Virus record (IMG/VR): IMGVR_UViG_3300007102_000044
Coordinates: 1 to 40,253 of that record
Strand: one strand, 5' to 3'
Length of the DNA: 40,253 bases
Source: a virus
Shown: positions 5,444-26,891 of the stretch, piece by piece
Layout of the letters: each line of letters opens with the position of its first letter
How positions within the stretch are numbered: position 1 is the stretch's first letter
Translations under genes and position numbers: made by a program
The notes under the pieces: model-generated
What the model was told of the DNA's origin: nothing
What the model saw: the letters and a program-made list of their open reading frames with translations, nothing else
The model's database searches: none

Positions 5444-5573
5444 AATATTACCTCTCATGTTTAATTTAACCTTATATAGACACATTATTATAAATAATAT
5501 TATGTGTCAACCCATAAATGTAAAAAAAGATAAATAATAAAAAGATTATAAATTAAAGGAGAAATATAAATGG
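5441..5573. promoter_or_regulatory. Bidirectional early(-)/late(+) promoter cassette, copy 1
   Basis: Minus strand TTGACA-17-TAATGT; plus strand AAAAGATAAATA and AAGGAG; 41 bp identical to 10546-10586. Confidence 0.8.
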
Positions 5574-7477
5574 CACAATTTTTATCCCCTAATTATTTTT
5601 TTAGGGAAAAAGACCTTTCAGGTAGAGTCCCAGCTGTATCGACTTCCATAACTGGTGTTGTTGGTAAGTATGATTGGGGTGCTTGCTATGAAAGAATAAT
5701 TTTAACACAGCCTACTGATGTTGTTGGTAAAATTGGTTATCCTACTGATGACAATTATAACCACTGGTATCAAGTTAGAAATAACCTTGATTATAACAAC
5801 ATGCTTTATGCTGTGAGAGTTGTTGACACTGGTACAGCTGTCAATGGTGGTTTTAAAGTATTTGAAGATGGTGATTATGTTACTATAACTTATGCAAGTC
5901 TTACAGGAACATTTGCTGATGATGAATCACTCACATTTTCAGGTGGTGCTACTGGTATAATAGTACAAGATAATGGTACTGATATTATGACTATTCAAGT
6001 CACATCTGGAACTGTTGTTGTTGCTGATGGTATTACAGGTGATACATCTGGTGCTACTGCTACAGTAAGTGTTGTTGGTGATGTATATGTTAACCATAAT
6101 GTAACAGAATACATTCCTAATGCTGATGCAATTGATGATGTGACACTTTCATTTGACCCAAAGGAAAGACTTTCAATATTTGCTAAATATCCATCAGATA
6201 CTTATGGTAATGCAATCAAAGTTGCAATAGCTAATTCAACTGATTTTAGTACAGCAAATATTATGACTGAGGATGACGGTTCTGAGATTAAATTCTCTTC
6301 ATACTTTGATAGAGAACCAGAATCAACAGAATTTGCAGTTGCGGTACTTTTCCCAGCTGACATTAATGATTCATCTAACACAGAATATGAAATAGTTGAA
6401 ACTTTTATAGTGTCTACTGTTTCAGGCACAAAAAATTTTGAAGGTAATGTAGTATATTTTGAAGATTATATTAATACTTCTTCACAGTATATCCTTATGT
6501 TCGATAACACAGGCAATACAAATGATGTAAAATCTTTTGAAGCTGAACAATTTGTTAATGGTGTTGCTGGTGATATCACTGATGCTGAAGTTATCAATGG
6601 TTATGACCTTTTTGCAAATCCAGAAGATGTGGAAGTTGACCTTCTTATTGACGGTGTGAACAATAGTGTAACAGTTCAACAATACCTTATTGATTCTATT
6701 GCAGAAGTTAGAAAGGATTGTTTTGTAATTCTTACACCTGAGAAAACTGATGTTGTTAATCAGATTGATGCTAGTACAGCTGTTTCAAATATGATAACAT
6801 ATAGAAAAGATACTCTCAGTAGGTCTTCAAGTTATGCTGGTTTCTATGGAAACTATAAGTATCAATTTGATAGATATTCAGGTAAATATAAGTGGGTGTC
6901 ACTTGCTGGTGATATTGCTGGTGTGTTTGCTGTTACTGATACTACAAATGATAGCTGGTTTGCTCCTGCTGGTGATGAAACTGGTAGAATTAAAAATGCA
7001 AAAAAACTTGCTTTTAAATCATCTCTTGGACTTAGAAACCTTATGTATGTTGCACAAATTAACCCTGTTGTACAATTTCCATCCGAAACACCTATGGTAT
7101 ACGGTCAGAAAACGCTTCAGGTTAAACCAAGTGCTTTTGATAGAGTGGAAGTGAGAAGACTGTTTATCTATATTGAGAAATCAATTGGTAAAGTTATGAA
7201 ATATTTTGTCTTTAAAAAGAACACAGATTTCACAAGAAACCAAATTGTTGGAATTATTGAACCAGCACTTAGAGATATTCAAGGTAGGGAAGGTCTTTAT
7301 GACTTTGCTGTTGAATGTTCAGCTAATAATAACACTGGTGAAGTGATTGACAGAAATGAGCTTGTATGTGACGTATATCTTCAGCCTACAAAGTCGGCAG
7401 AATTTTTGAACTTTACATACATAGCAACCAAAACTGGTGCTGATTTTAACGAGCTTAGAAAGCTTATAAACGGTTAA
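5570..7477 (+). CDS. 18: Tail sheath protein (T4 gp18-like)
   Basis: LSP...REKDLS start, WFAPAG..G.I, INPV, YGQKT....SAFDRVEVRRLF, QPTKSAEF. Confidence 0.95.
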   Translation: MAQFLSPNYFFREKDLSGRVPAVSTSITGVVGKYDWGACYERIILTQPTDVVGKIGYPTDDNYNHWYQVRNNLDYNNMLYAVRVVDTGTAVNGGFKVFEDGDYVTITYASLTGTFADDESLTFSGGATGIIVQDNGTDIMTIQVTSGTVVVADGITGDTSGATATVSVVGDVYVNHNVTEYIPNADAIDDVTLSFDPKERLSIFAKYPSDTYGNAIKVAIANSTDFSTANIMTEDDGSEIKFSSYFDREPESTEFAVAVLFPADINDSSNTEYEIVETFIVSTVSGTKNFEGNVVYFEDYINTSSQYILMFDNTGNTNDVKSFEAEQFVNGVAGDITDAEVINGYDLFANPEDVEVDLLIDGVNNSVTVQQYLIDSIAEVRKDCFVILTPEKTDVVNQIDASTAVSNMITYRKDTLSRSSSYAGFYGNYKYQFDRYSGKYKWVSLAGDIAGVFAVTDTTNDSWFAPAGDETGRIKNAKKLAFKSSLGLRNLMYVAQINPVVQFPSETPMVYGQKTLQVKPSAFDRVEVRRLFIYIEKSIGKVMKYFVFKKNTDFTRNQIVGIIEPALRDIQGREGLYDFAVECSANNNTGEVIDRNELVCDVYLQPTKSAEFLNFTYIATKTGADFNELRKLING

Positions 7478-7480
7478 AAG

Positions 7481-7509
7481 TTGACAATATAAATTTATTA
7501 TGATATTAT
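7481..7509 (+). promoter_or_regulatory. sigma70-like promoter for the endonuclease gene
   Basis: TTGACA-17-TATTAT. Confidence 0.7.
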
Positions 7510-7511
7510 AG

Positions 7512-7590
7512 TTTTTATGTGGGAAAAGAGTTAGCTACTCCTGTTATGAACTCCCTTCATAACTACCACATAAAAAACTTTTAAAGGGAG
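7512..7590 (+). ncRNA. Putative structured cis-regulatory leader RNA (three-way junction with anti-SD loop)
   Basis: P1 TTTTTATGTGG/CCACATAAAAA, P2 GAGT/ACTC, P3 GTTATGAA/TTCATAAC with loop CTCCC complementary to SD GGGAG. Confidence 0.6.
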
Positions 7591-7596
7591 AATTTA

Positions 7597-9408
7597 ATGG
7601 CTGTAAAAACACATCCTAATATAATTATTAAAAATAAAATAAACAAAATATTATATGATAAAACTATAGAACATATAGATGTTGAATTGTTGAAAGCTTT
7701 TATTAGAAATAATTTAGATATATCTAAGATAGCCAATTTCAATCTAGTATTATATAAATATGAAAATCCATCATATATAAAGACGTTTGAATATTTATAT
7801 AGAAAATATAGTTATAAAAATTATTCAGAATTGATTTATATACTCTATAATGATATAGAACCCCCCAAATGTTCAGTTTGTGGAATTCATAATCAGAATT
7901 TTATATCTTTTAAACGGGGGTATTCTGGATTCTGTTCAAAATCTTGCGCATCAAAAAAGGCTAATCAGATAAGAGCATATTCTGATTTAATTAAAGAAGA
8001 ATTGACAGAATATGAAATTAGGAAATTAGTTATCTTGTTAATGAAAAGTGATAAATATTCTTTATATTCACCTTCTCAATCTTTTAAAACGCATGATATA
8101 AATCTATACAATAATATAATAAATAGAACCAATTACTTACAAGAAAACTGTAAATTTACCGAAAGATTATATCATATTGTTAATGGTTTATATAAAAATC
8201 CTACATGTGTTAAATGTGGTAATACTATTGATGTGAAATTTAAAACTTTTAACAATGGGTATGGTAGTTATTGTAAAACATGTATTAACAAAAAAACTGG
8301 TATGAAAATTGGCAATTCTACATCTAAAACTAAAAGAGAACAAAACTTTCAACAAATTATAAATAAATTTTCTGATGATTATATATGTTTAACAAAAAAG
8401 AATGAATTTGTTGAAACTGGAATTATGTCAGTCTATCATCATACATGTGGTAAAACTATAAAGCGTGAGCAAGGATATTATAATTATGGATGTCCATATT
8501 GTAAAAAATCAGGACGGTCTAACATAGAAAAGGAAATTAGAGATTTCTTGACTCTTTTTATTAAGGGTGATATTTTATTAAATACTAAACCATTGAAAGA
8601 CGATTCTAAAATTGGTAACGCTGGTAACAGAGAAATAGATATATACATCCCTGATAAAAAGATTGGTATCGAATATCATGGTTTATATTGGCACACAGAA
8701 TCTAATGGTAAGAATAATAAATATCATTTAGATAAGTATAATATGGCAAATGAAAACGATATACAATTATTACAAATATTTTCTAATGAATGGATATATA
8801 AAAATGATATAGTCAAATCAATTATTAAATCTAAATTGGGTGTGTATGATAATCGTTTATATGCCAGAAAATGTGAAGTTAGAGAGATTGACAATCAAAC
8901 AAAGGATAAATTTCTTGATGAAAACCATTTACAAGGTAAAGATATATCTAAACATAGGTTTGGTTTATATTATAACGATGAGCTTATTTCAGTTATGACC
9001 TTTGGTAAAAGAAATATATCAGGGCAATCAACTTTTGAATTAATTAGATATGCTTGTAAACTTAATACACAAATTATAGGTGGTGCAAGTAAGCTGTTTA
9101 AATACTTTATAAATAACTATTGGAATGGTGAAGCTATTAAAACCTATGCCGATAAAAGATATAGTAATGGTTCTCTGTATCATCAGCTAGGGTTTAAATA
9201 TACTCACGATTCAAAACCTAACTATTGGTATACAAAGGATTATAAAACTGTTGAACATAGAGCAAACTATATGAAACATAAACTTAAAGACAAACTATCA
9301 AATTATGATGAAAATTTAACTGAATGGGAAAATATGAAATTAAATGGATATGACCGTATATGGGATTGTGGTAATATGGTATTTGAATATAACAATTTAA
9401 ACAATTAA
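7597..9408 (+). CDS. Hef-like homing endonuclease (Zn ribbons, Vsr-like nuclease, C-terminal GNAT-like domain)
   Basis: Multiple CxxC pairs; SNIEKEI, EIDIYIPDKKIGIEYHGLYWH; YARKC, NHLQG, ELIRYA, GGASKL, YADKR, IWDCG. Confidence 0.8.
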   Translation: MAVKTHPNIIIKNKINKILYDKTIEHIDVELLKAFIRNNLDISKIANFNLVLYKYENPSYIKTFEYLYRKYSYKNYSELIYILYNDIEPPKCSVCGIHNQNFISFKRGYSGFCSKSCASKKANQIRAYSDLIKEELTEYEIRKLVILLMKSDKYSLYSPSQSFKTHDINLYNNIINRTNYLQENCKFTERLYHIVNGLYKNPTCVKCGNTIDVKFKTFNNGYGSYCKTCINKKTGMKIGNSTSKTKREQNFQQIINKFSDDYICLTKKNEFVETGIMSVYHHTCGKTIKREQGYYNYGCPYCKKSGRSNIEKEIRDFLTLFIKGDILLNTKPLKDDSKIGNAGNREIDIYIPDKKIGIEYHGLYWHTESNGKNNKYHLDKYNMANENDIQLLQIFSNEWIYKNDIVKSIIKSKLGVYDNRLYARKCEVREIDNQTKDKFLDENHLQGKDISKHRFGLYYNDELISVMTFGKRNISGQSTFELIRYACKLNTQIIGGASKLFKYFINNYWNGEAIKTYADKRYSNGSLYHQLGFKYTHDSKPNYWYTKDYKTVEHRANYMKHKLKDKLSNYDENLTEWENMKLNGYDRIWDCGNMVFEYNNLNN

Positions 9409-9684
9409 AACCCTCTTTTTAGAGGGCTTTCTTTTTTCAAACATATCTATAGCGGTATCACATATAGTCTCATATTTCCAATATATTTCATCCATAAAAT
9501 ATTTAAATTTTTTAAATGTTTCATCACTCATAGATTCAAGAAGTTCATTTGTAATAGTATCAATATTTGTATATTCATCACTACTACCATAACATTCTGA
9601 CGAACAATATCCTTTGTCCATATGGTCTATTGAATCACATGATGAACAATAATGAAACTTTTTACCACATTTTTTACAGTTCAT
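9397..9684 (-). CDS. Hypothetical Cys-rich protein
   Basis: CKKC, CSSC, CSSEC motifs. Confidence 0.6.
   Translation of the reverse strand: MNCKKCGKKFHYCSSCDSIDHMDKGYCSSECYGSSDEYTNIDTITNELLESMSDETFKKFKYFMDEIYWKYETICDTAIDMFEKRKPSKKRVLIV
9411..9438 (+). terminator. Terminator hairpin at convergent junction
   Basis: CCCTCT-TTTT-AGAGGG plus T-tract; inverted near-copy of 15702-15725. Confidence 0.65.
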
Positions 9685-9692
9685 AACACCCC

Positions 9693-9887
9693 CTAATCAA
9701 ACACAACTTTTTCATATGCTTTATCGGTCAAATATTTTAAAGCTTTTTCTGGTTCTACAAACTCTTTAACCATTTTCACTTCGTCATAATATACAACCTT
9801 CCCTTCATGCATAAGCGTATACTGCATATAATTCCCTTTTGTAATACCAAAAAATGATTGCCACATTATATTATACCTCTTTTCCAC
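9693..9887 (-). CDS. Hypothetical protein (start possibly 9869)
   Basis: Operon packing; AGAGGTATAAT RBS precedes the internal Met. Confidence 0.55.
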   Translation of the reverse strand: MEKRYNIMWQSFFGITKGNYMQYTLMHEGKVVYYDEVKMVKEFVEPEKALKYLTDKAYEKVVFD

Positions 9888-10219
9888 ATTTTAAGGTTTC
9901 CATTAATTACTTCATTCTGAAGAACCTTTTCAAGTTTTTCGGTTGCTGTGTGTGAAACGATTTTGCCATATGTTTTTCCATCCATATCAACAAATGTGTA
10001 ACATACTTTATTCTTATAGTATGATGGTTCACGATTAAGATTGAACCATCTTTTAAGGTCTTTGTTATATCTTTCTTTACGATATGATATTTTGTTGAAT
10101 TTGTAACGATACATATAACCATCTTTTTCTTTTTTGAAATTACCGAAACGGTCTTCAGTCCAGTTACAAATTTTAAGGACTTCTTTGATTTGTTCTTTTA
10201 TATTCATAATTACATCCAT
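9866..10219 (-). CDS. Hypothetical protein
   Basis: 117-aa ORF in operon. Confidence 0.6.
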   Translation of the reverse strand: MDVIMNIKEQIKEVLKICNWTEDRFGNFKKEKDGYMYRYKFNKISYRKERYNKDLKRWFNLNREPSYYKNKVCYTFVDMDGKTYGKIVSHTATEKLEKVLQNEVINGNLKMWKRGII

Positions 10220-10485
10220 TCTTCTTTTGGAATACCAGCACTTTCAAGAAGTTCTATATTCACATAATAGTTCCAGATACCTTTATCAACATACCAAGCG
10301 GTTTGAATTATTCCATTTTTAGAACTTCTTCCATTAGTATGAGTGGATTCTCTCATATCTGGACTATGTTTCCATTTACCTTCTGTTCTGACAAAAAGAC
10401 CAACCATTGTCATGGTGTTAGCGTTAACTTTAATAATATTATCATCATTTTCCAGTCTTTTCATATAAGATTCTTTAAATTTCAT
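10210..10485 (-). CDS. Hypothetical early protein
   Basis: Conserved RBS and promoter upstream. Confidence 0.65.
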   Translation of the reverse strand: MKFKESYMKRLENDDNIIKVNANTMTMVGLFVRTEGKWKHSPDMRESTHTNGRSSKNGIIQTAWYVDKGIWNYYVNIELLESAGIPKEEWM

Positions 10486-10613
10486 AATATAACCTCTTTT
10501 GTTTAATTGACCTTACATGGATACAATATATAACATTCAATCTATTGTCAACCCATAAATGTAAAAAAAGATAAATAATAAAAAGAATATTATTAAAGGA
10601 GAAATATAAATGG
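10483..10613. promoter_or_regulatory. Bidirectional early(-)/late(+) promoter cassette, copy 2
   Basis: Minus strand TTGACA-17-TATTGT; plus strand AAAAGATAAATA; duplicate of 5441-5573. Confidence 0.8.
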
Positions 10614-11104
10614 ACGTTGGACAATTTTCAGCTAACTTTGCTCACGGTGCTAGGGCTAACTTATATAGTGTGTATATTGATGATATGCCTGAAAAGATTA
10701 AATTTCTTGTAAAGGCTACTTCTATCCCTTCAGTTGATGTTGGTGTTATAGAAGTTCCATTCATGGACAAAACTATTAAGATTGCTGGTGATTTAACATT
10801 TGCAGAGTGGAACACAACTCTCATGCTTGATGAAGATTATGCGGGTAGAATTCAACTTGAAGAATGGGCGCAAAAAATCAAGAACTTTAATGAAGTTGGT
10901 GGTTCAAATAATGTTGCAGACTATTTTAGAACAGCAACAGTCACACAACTTTCAGGTGATGGTGTAACTGAACTCAGGAAATATAAGATTTATAATCTTT
11001 TCCCACAAACAGTTCCTACAATTGACCTGTCATGGGAATCAAAAGATACTATATCTGAATATGAAGTTACATGGGCTTACACATACTGGACACCTGTTAG
11101 CTAA
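10610..11104 (+). CDS. 19: Tail tube protein (gp19-like)
   Basis: GARANLY, IEVPF....KIAGD.TFAEW, FP..V..IDLSW...DTI.EYEVTWAYTYW. Confidence 0.93.
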   Translation: MDVGQFSANFAHGARANLYSVYIDDMPEKIKFLVKATSIPSVDVGVIEVPFMDKTIKIAGDLTFAEWNTTLMLDEDYAGRIQLEEWAQKIKNFNEVGGSNNVADYFRTATVTQLSGDGVTELRKYKIYNLFPQTVPTIDLSWESKDTISEYEVTWAYTYWTPVS

Positions 11105-15285: not shown

Positions 15286-15713
15286 TGAAAAAACCAAGTA
15301 TAGGTGATGAACTCAATATTGAACCACCTAAACAAATTGATTTAGATGAAGTAAATGTTGAACATAAATCACAGTCAGAAGATTTTGAAGATGATTATAG
15401 ATTCATTAGAGAGAAACTACACTTAGCTATTGAAAGGGGTGCTGATGTCCTTGATGAATCTGTTAAGAATGCTAAAATGGATTTACATCCACGTATAGTA
15501 GAAGGTGTTGCAACTATTTTGAATCAAATGGTTAATGCAAACTCACAGCTGTTAAATCTCCATGAAAAGATGAATAAGATTCAATCTTTAAAGGATGATA
15601 AATCAGATGAAGATGTTGAAACTGTAAAAGAGACATCCAAATCTTTGAGTGATTTGTTACAAGAAATTGAAGATGCAGAGAACGAGCGTTTAGAAAAAGA
15701 AAAAGCCCTCTAA
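15285..15713 (+). CDS. terS: Terminase small subunit (gp16-like)
   Basis: EDDY..IR...H, AK...HPR..E..AT...QM..AN..LL.LH..M..I resembles T4 gp16. Confidence 0.85.
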   Translation: MKKPSIGDELNIEPPKQIDLDEVNVEHKSQSEDFEDDYRFIREKLHLAIERGADVLDESVKNAKMDLHPRIVEGVATILNQMVNANSQLLNLHEKMNKIQSLKDDKSDEDVETVKETSKSLSDLLQEIEDAENERLEKEKAL

Positions 15714-15725
15714 AAAGAGGGCTTT
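15702..15725. terminator. Bidirectional terminator between late and replication blocks
   Basis: AAAGCCCTCT-AAAA-AGAGGGCTTT. Confidence 0.8.
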
Positions 15726-26807: not shown

Positions 26808-26891
26808 TGCGGGTAGTGGGATTCGAACCCACACGGTGTTTCCACCAAAGAATTTTAAGTTCTTCATGAATACCAGTTCCACCATACCCGC
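26808..26891 (-). tRNA. tRNA-Leu (anticodon UAA), CCA not encoded
   Basis: Acceptor GCGGGTA/TACCCGC, anticodon arm AAGAA-CTTAAAA-TTCTT, long variable arm GGTG-GAAA-CACC, T-loop GTTCGAATC. Confidence 0.93.

Follow-up and report, generated by a model that had tools for sequence, protein, structure and literature searches.

A three-way-junction RNA with a loop complementary to the Shine-Dalgarno sequence in the leader of a Hef-like homing endonuclease gene of an environmental myovirus

We analyzed the first 40,253 nucleotides (nt) of the IMG/VR virus record IMGVR_UViG_3300007102_000044, hereafter called the window. The source record, a 130.5-kb myovirus genome of about 29% G+C, has terminal repeats. 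A gap of 119 nt separates the tail sheath gene from the open reading frame (ORF) of a Hef-like homing endonuclease, and in this gap positions 7512-7576 hold a three-way-junction RNA with a hairpin loop complementary to the Shine-Dalgarno (SD) sequence of the endonuclease gene. The structure is conserved in related leaders, its helices covary, the loop-SD complementarity covaries as well, the element stands beside nuclease genes, and it is absent from Rfam. The element is probably an SD-sequestering RNA which limits translation of the nuclease. Its third hairpin (P3) would pair through the loop sequence CUCCCUU with the SD AAGGGAG of the same leader, and the resulting pseudoknot would hide the ribosome-binding site (RBS). 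Formation of this pairing in vivo, its repressive effect on translation, and the set of transcripts with the element are inferred from the sequence. On such transcripts, which may include the abundant late read-through from the sheath gene, the masked SD would give low nuclease translation, and keeping that translation low is most likely the role of the RNA. Masking of the RBS is known to control homing endonucleases of phage T4, and the element would be a structurally new version of this control.

An earlier note on this DNA had proposed a promoter, three helices (P1, P2, and P3), an anti-SD, and an SD at this locus. All of its coordinates are exact, and the minimum-free-energy structure from RNAfold contains P1, P2, and P3. 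All the parts lie on the plus strand. P1 has 11 perfect pairs (7512-7522 with 7566-7576; 5' arm UUUUUAUGUGG) and is followed by the junction strand J1/2, GAAAA (7523-7527). P2 is the hairpin GAGU/UAGCU loop/ACUC (7528-7531 with 7537-7540), and P3 is the hairpin GUUAUGAA/CUCCC loop/UUCAUAAC with 8 perfect pairs (7543-7550 with 7556-7563). The junction strand J3/1 (UA) and the P1 3' arm CCACAUAAAAA occupy 7564-7576. The RNA starts 35 nt past the sheath stop codon and ends 20 nt before the endonuclease ATG at 7597. The SD AAGGGAG (7584-7590) lies 7 nt past the foot of P1 and ends 6 nt before the ATG. The anti-SD CUCCCUU (7551-7557), made of the P3 loop and two stem bases, is its exact complement, as the earlier note had stated, with a duplex energy of -10.9 kcal/mol. 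No alternative fold of the element was found, and BLAST and covariance-model searches gave a single copy of it in the 130.5-kb genome.

As a single sequence, the locus gives a weakly significant signal, close to what chance would produce. Folding of 7510-7600 gives a z-score of -1.89, with 9 of 200 shuffles equal or better, and folding of 7478-7599 gives one of -1.47. Some 7-nt complement to the 20-nt leader is present in 18% of dinucleotide shuffles of the core, and the SD-specific CUCCCUU in 1.2%; the only plus-strand occurrence of this word in the 40-kb window is the P3 loop. The weakness of these statistics would suit a chance cluster of hairpins in AT-rich intergenic DNA. Such a cluster is nevertheless hardly credible, being contradicted by a position and structure kept in at least 16 distinct sequences with covariation. 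The observation rises above chance because the element is conserved, with covariation, in related loci.

The endonuclease lacks a close homologue; the best are P0003, with 51% identity over 69% of the query, and P0002, with 47% over 94%. The five nearest (P0002-P0006, 44-51% identity) lie in comparable leaders, all with the same three-way junction. Both the sheath and the tube gene were seen for the loci L009-L011, only the sheath end for L012, and the contig of L014 starts inside the element. The sheath C-termini of the homologue loci are 44-55% identical to that of the window. Where complete, the homologue leaders are 105-119 nt long, with the junction kept and the helix sequences different. 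P1 differs in sequence in each of them, always pairs, and ends in GG followed by GA; the sequence of the 3' junction is CU(A/U)A or UA(A), with CC after it. Homologue P0009, at locus L013 in a different context, has no clear junction before its gene. Peptide patterns found no close Hef relatives in IMG/VR, and the whole-sheath query reached only relatives at 32-36% there.

Covariance-model alignments were used because MAFFT misaligned the divergent leaders. A first model, R1, was built from L009 and L010 only. With the default filters of Infernal, R1 missed the window, and the filters were switched off where size allowed. R1 then scored the window at 26.9 bits (E = 4.7e-5), and L012 and L011 were the next plus-strand matches. 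An IMG/VR pattern scan combined with R1 gave the new members L110, L111, L115 (two copies), and L117 (two copies), and a metagenome scan returned duplicates of known members only. A second model, R2, was made from nine sequences and scored L012 at 20.9 bits and L011 at 17.2 bits. It found one copy in the genome of the window and one or two in other whole records. A looser scan with R2 added seven further divergent members, which we call group 2. At L013, a minus-strand R2 match of 18.7 bits was excluded as a degenerate two-stem look-alike before a DUF7487 ORF. The gene of P0009 at this locus (L013 2116-4524) translates only with TGA read as tryptophan, an indication of a recoded phage. Two members were also compared with cultured phages by blastn, and nothing convincing came up.

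The earlier note had expected covariation in homologous leaders, including the loop and the SD, and this was borne out by compensatory changes in all three helices and by at least seven loop-SD sequence types. In the nine-sequence alignment, 99% of pair cells are paired, compared with 34-47% after the 3' partners have been shifted by 1-3 columns. Changes on both sides occur in 17 of its 22 pairs, and none of 500 shuffles was as high on all five measures. The 16-sequence alignment (A7) has 97.7% of pair cells paired, compared with 35-44% when slid, and again 17 of 22 pairs are compensatory. Within A7, 9 of the 10 pairs of helix 1 are changed on both sides, helix 3 is 100% paired with both-side changes in 5 of 6 pairs, and RNAalifold returns the same three helices. 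The junction bases are near-invariant while the helices vary. The closing G-C pair of P1 is invariant family-wide, and the adjacent pair is G-C in 14 of 16 sequences. The core consensus of the family is GGGACAG ... GUUGAU ... AUCU(A/U)ACC, where the first block corresponds to J1/2 and the last to J3/1 with the P1 3' arm; its counterpart in the window is GGGAAAAG ... CUACC. The junctions of the window are GAAAA, CU, and UA, and those of the family GA(CA) and CU(A/U)A. One G-U pair is kept in 15 of 16 sequences, which fixes the transcribed strand.

These alignments also bear on the idea that the element acts as DNA, either as a recombination or homing signal resembling PeSL cassettes or as a protein-binding inverted repeat, kept by gene conversion. 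The element does travel with a promoter-like box, beside mobile nucleases and at insertion hot spots. PeSL (promoter-early stem-loop) cassettes, which are mobile regulatory modules of T4-type phages, pair a sigma-70-like promoter with a stem-loop (PMC2839356, PMC4122927). The window resembles them in having a small module of promoter and structure that borders variable or mobile genes, with a near-consensus sigma-70-like promoter. However, the stem-loop of a PeSL is a simple hairpin whose stem follows a short consensus with G/C; these hairpins are described as terminators, and a genome has many of them (PMC4122927). The element here is an AU-rich three-way junction (P1 itself is AU-rich). Its core is conserved, it lacks a T run, its loop is an anti-SD, and it occurs only once or twice in a genome, in the window's own just once. 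Its helix sequences differ almost wholly while the pairing and the G-U pair are kept, which argues for selection on RNA from one strand, and a function in DNA gives no rationale for the covariation of loop and SD. We consider a DNA-level role highly improbable.

The loop-SD complementarity was tested in 11 members with a downstream gene (group 1) by comparing the P3 loop, extended by 2 nt on either side, with the stretch before the start codon. A member's own loop and leader give a mean Watson-Crick run of 6.8 nt, versus 4.3 nt for mismatched loop/leader pairs, and the mean duplex energy is -10.95 kcal/mol for own pairs versus -6.9 kcal/mol for cross pairs. In 20,000 permutations the observed total was never reached. 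At least seven loop-SD types covary, including CUCCCUU/AAGGGAG of the window, AACUCCGA/UCGGAGUU, AUCCU/AGGAU, AACCCUC/GAGGGUU, CCCCAAA/UUUGGGG, CUCUCACUU/AAGUGAGAG, and UUUUCC/GGAAAA. The matches end 1-9 nt 5' of the start codon, and the foot of P1 precedes the start codon by 19-25 nt in nine members, with wider gaps of 31-34 nt in the other two.

The structure might instead serve the mRNA of the sheath, a highly expressed late gene, by stabilizing its 3' end, by marking a processing site, or by terminating transcription in an atypical way. The 35-nt distance from the sheath stop, the sequence AACUUUU that follows P1, and the position of the element directly after the sheath gene in six loci (the window, L009-L012, and L110) would fit such a role. 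However, sheath relatives that have no inserted nuclease lack the element. In 80 IMG/VR sheath relatives the sheath gene leads almost directly to the tube gene, the endonuclease is missing, and the spacers are mostly too short for the RNA; the covariance model found no RNA element in these spacers. The same RNA also occurs in group I introns of capsid genes and in tRNA regions, far from the sheath. The terminator-like sites of this phage are short GC-rich hairpins with T runs, unlike the element, and a role in sheath expression leaves the covarying loop-SD match unexplained. We therefore regard service to the sheath mRNA as very unlikely. An intrinsic terminator in the ordinary sense, a GC-rich hairpin with a T run directly after it, was also rejected; the terminator scan made no call at the element, where P1 is followed by AACUUUUAAAG. 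Because the sheath gene adjoins the tube gene in the 80 relatives, the endonuclease and its leader are an insertion.

A putative sigma-70-like promoter that matches 11 of 12 consensus positions lies just upstream of the structure, on the same strand. It consists of TTGACA at 7481-7486 and TATTAT at 7504-7509, 17 nt apart, with TG at 7501-7502 as an extended -10. With at most one mismatch, TTGACA-N17-TATTAT has 5 matches in the window, compared with 1.85 expected. A T4-late-like box found by consensus match, TATAAATT at 7488-7495, falls inside the span of this promoter. Both boxes are upstream of the structure, and the anti-SD is retained in transcripts from either. The start predicted for the sigma-70-like promoter, about 7516-7518, is within the P1 5' arm, so a transcript from it would have a shortened P1 and keep P3. 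The terminator scan reported no terminator-like site between 7477 and 7597. Since nothing of the kind separates the sheath stop from the RNA, we infer read-through from the sheath gene into the RNA, and because none lies between the sheath and endonuclease genes, masking would matter most on this read-through.

Promoter-like words recur near other members. The word TTGACAAT(A/T)TAAAT is found 5' of the intron-borne members, and TTGACA precedes each intron-borne copy, within the word TTGACAATTAAATA in four of the five (L111, L115, and copy b of L117) and TTGACAAC in copy a of L117; the window has the near-identical TTGACAATATAAAT. In eight members, T4-late-like boxes of the form (N)ATAAAT(A/T) end 0-8 nt 5' of P1. 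L011 and L012 have a -10-like box, TTGTTATAAT, between the junction and the SD. This feature varies among members, and relief by an internal promoter may thus exist in some of them. Promoter-like box, junction, and SD probably form together a mobile leader module that stands beside several unrelated homing-endonuclease families of T4-like phages.

As an alternative, the earlier note had suggested that the RNA might accompany this endonuclease family. That suggestion agrees with the five nearest Hef homologues, but the range of the element is different. The endonuclease of the window, whose gene is single-copy in its own genome, is 36-48% identical by tblastn to Hef of Campylobacter phages and Bacillus phage AR9, yet the Hef carriers CP8, CP30A (both Campylobacter phages), and AR9 gave no R2 match. 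Conversely, the element is found with unrelated nucleases. In L111, L115, and L117 it precedes genes for proteins of 259-310 amino acids (aa) that begin with a zinc finger and have a nuclease domain resembling Phage_endo_I or PvuRts1I, and these genes lie in group I introns of the major capsid gene in T4-like IMG/VR contigs. The RNA is not tied to the Hef family; in T4-like phages from the environment it goes with several families of mobile nucleases that are unrelated to each other. The interrupted gp23 genes with their group I introns (RF00028) span L111 775-2641, L115 2851-5477, and L117 1054-3726, with three consecutive matches in L111. In the CP8 tRNA cluster (L224 1631-2392), an unannotated 350-nt gap gave a weak blastn match (E = 0.3) which was not confirmed by the model.

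At L110/G003 the order is sheath gene, junction, HEARO/omega RNA, IscB gene, 217-aa ORF, and tube gene. The HEARO/omega RNA of IscB (RF02033) is likewise a structured RNA tied to a mobile nuclease, and here it lies 29 nt 3' of the junction. Its sequence and fold are unrelated, and it is a guide-RNA scaffold of about 210 nt (211 positions in the Rfam model), compared with a leader element of about 65 nt. It seems that the IscB unit was inserted later, separating the SD-like UGGAGG of the cassette from its original gene, in a T4-like sheath-tube gap. IscB has 416 aa with RRXRR and HNH domains (L145 of G003, 133-1773; L110 4854-5243), the 217-aa ORF starts 6 nt past the IscB stop, and an ACTAAAG heptamer is present on both flanks of the unit.

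The seven members of group 2, of five types, have a different layout. A divergent gene starts 15-32 nt from the 5' end of the element, and the complement to its SD region, 7-10 nt long, is in the P2 loop, not in P3. Examples of loop and SD are UUGUUACCUU/AAGGUAACAA, ACCUCCA/UGGAGGU, UUCCUGUA/UACAGGAA, and GGUUCUC/GAGAACC. The mean match is 7.9 nt for own pairs versus 4.5 nt for cross pairs, and 2 of 5,040 permutations reach the observed total. The divergent genes include those for a DUF7487 zinc-finger protein, a SegE-type GIY-YIG endonuclease, and a NUMOD3/PD-(D/E)xK-like nuclease. The G-U pairs of the group 2 P2 would be A-C mismatches on the other strand, so transcription of the RNA points away from the gene, which would mean that it acts in trans. 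The group 2 loci lie in or near phage tRNA clusters; 16 tRNAs and a tmRNA-like call are near the element in L153 (4313-10528), and in L192 (120-196) a tRNA-Leu lies 16 nt 3' of the element.

Group 2 gives grounds for an alternative in which the junction is the scaffold of a trans-acting or factor-controlled regulator, either a small stable RNA or a protein- or ligand-binding domain, which displays a programmable anti-SD loop and acts on the neighboring nuclease mRNA in an antisense or antitoxin-like and switchable manner. The divergent nuclease genes, the P2 loop matches, and the placement of the RNA on the strand opposite the gene by its G-U pairs all point this way. So do the T4-late-like boxes just before P1 in eight members, the near-invariant junction bases among variable helices, and the tRNA-Leu downstream in L192, which would allow release by RNase P. 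However, the window and all group 1 members have the element and the nuclease gene on one strand, with the gene starting 19-34 nt past the element, and action in cis is the simplest reading of this layout. There is also no terminator after P1 and no candidate ligand or protein, and group 2 amounts to seven sequences. For the element of the window we consider such a regulator unlikely. The translational switch limiting the nuclease that the earlier note had proposed is upheld in part by the covarying loop-SD complementarity. Its opening by a ligand or protein is hypothetical, and constitutive damping would fit the data equally well.

Damping by SD masking in cis has close precedents. RNA structures that sequester the RBS hold down I-TevI, I-TevII, I-TevIII, and segB of T4 and mobE of Aeh1 (PMC2988022). 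In both cases a structured RNA just 5' of a phage homing endonuclease gene is complementary to the SD of that gene. Free-standing and intron-borne genes are also involved in both, with low nuclease production on long read-through transcripts as the rationale (PMC2988022). The T4 structures, however, are simple idiosyncratic hairpins which hold the SD in the stem and are relieved by a late promoter inside the hairpin. Here the three-way junction is conserved, the anti-SD is in a hairpin loop with pseudoknot geometry, and the scaffold is common to unrelated nucleases. The promoter-like site of the window leaves the anti-SD in place, and some members face the nuclease gene from the other strand. 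Antisense and type I antitoxin RNAs are similar in having a short exposed loop complementary to the SD of an adjacent, potentially harmful gene, and the divergent layout of group 2 resembles many such pairs. They differ in that the element has no extended antisense overlap, the toxin would be a homing endonuclease, and most members probably act in cis on the same mRNA. Our literature search found the papers on T4 RBS masking and on PeSL and no description of the junction motif.

No Rfam family, tRNA, or ribozyme accounts for the element, and the earlier note had likewise recognized no tRNA, hammerhead, or riboswitch core in it. Rfam release 15 has no family on it in the window at the gathering score or at E values up to 10, and nothing on it in six related loci at E <= 1. 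The only gathering-score match in the window is a tRNA-Leu away from the element. The best match in 7380-7700 is SIB_RNA (16.5 bits versus a gathering score of 56, E = 0.71), which consists mostly of the TTGACA word and short hairpins and was rejected as no homology, and the Rfam match RF_site9 was dismissed as noise. A tRNA-like reading was rejected because ARAGORN and Rfam find only the tRNA-Leu at 26808-26891. The hammerhead core consists of CUGANGA, GAAA, and a cleavage-site NUH in the junctions. A hammerhead or another three-way-junction ribozyme was rejected, with junctions that have no catalytic core and no Rfam ribozyme matches; CUGAUCA is present only as the P2 loop of one subgroup. 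Compared with riboswitches, the element has a conserved junction core and SD complementarity, and its downstream genes are unrelated mobile nucleases rather than a metabolic regulon.

Several points weigh against SD masking as the explanation. The fold of the window itself only modestly beats shuffles (z of -1.5 to -1.9). Its P3 loop has 5 nt, so that the 7-bp pairing needs two stem pairs to open; opening the top two A-U pairs of P3 gives a 9-nt loop, and most other members have loops of 7-11 nt. The loops are C/U-rich and the SDs purine-rich, and this narrow vocabulary raises the background of matches, a bias for which the cross-pair control allows. The loop-SD pseudoknot is beyond what the folding tools used can score. 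The alignments behind the pair counts were fitted to the structure of the model, and some members are close kin. The window offers no evident route of derepression. Plain SD masking leaves the strong conservation of the junction bases unexplained, and their near-invariance suggests a specific tertiary fold or a bound factor. Finally, the statements on function are drawn throughout from sequence comparison.

The surroundings of the element are those of an inserted island at 7478-10500. The upstream neighbor is the gp18-like tail sheath gene (5570-7477, plus strand; Pfam Phage_sheath_1, Phage_sheath_1C, and Gp18_domIII_N). The free-standing Hef-like homing endonuclease gene (7597-9408, plus strand; 603 aa; phrog_3339, 2.3e-108, and phrog_559, 4.9e-105) occupies the sheath/tube interval. 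A two-way GC-rich hairpin with T runs at 9407-9430, from the terminator-like site scan, closes its transcription unit and the insert. The terminator-like sites at 227-250, 9407-9430, and 15702-15725 are near-identical hairpins of the GC-rich AAAGCCCTCT-loop-AGAGGGCTTT type with T runs, two of them with nearly the same stem. Three minus-strand ORFs (95, 117, and 91 aa) lie at 9397-10485, between the endonuclease terminator and the tube gene, and one of them has a faint HNH-family PHROG match (E = 0.0065). The tail tube gene gp19 is at 10610-11104 on the plus strand (Pfam Phage_T4_gp19). A second copy of the gp18 upstream cassette precedes it (10502-10613, plus strand). Sequence comparison gives a 96-nt direct repeat, 77% identical, with an identical 22-mer of SD and ATG, at 5461-5573 before the sheath gene and at 10502-10613 before the tube gene. 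With this duplication, the tube gene keeps its own promoter and SD copy 3' of the island.

Homing endonucleases need enough expression to spread and not so much that they harm the carrier phage. T4 keeps this balance with one-off hairpins over the ribosome-binding site, whereas here one conserved fold appears to serve several unrelated nuclease families, with the loop retuned to the SD of each gene and in some loci apparently aimed at a gene on the opposite strand. It is possible, though we hold it tentatively, that these RNAs of about 65-75 nt belong to an undescribed family that provides a portable and programmable anti-SD scaffold for selfish nuclease genes of T4-like phages. The junction fold would be fixed and possibly factor-bound, and one loop would be rewritten for each SD, with P3 directed at a downstream gene in the same RNA and P2 at a divergent gene in trans, in an antitoxin-like manner. 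The scaffold would move among Hef-like, zinc-finger/Endo-I-like, DUF7487, and SegE GIY-YIG genes and into group I introns, and it would serve as a landing site for IscB. The element is a candidate for a new Rfam family, with covariation unusually strong for its size. It flags phage insertion hot spots for annotation, namely the sheath/tube interval, the capsid gene, and tRNA clusters, and it may be a natural template for compact, retargetable translational repressors. If this is confirmed, the element would show clearly that a regulatory RNA module can move together with selfish genes.

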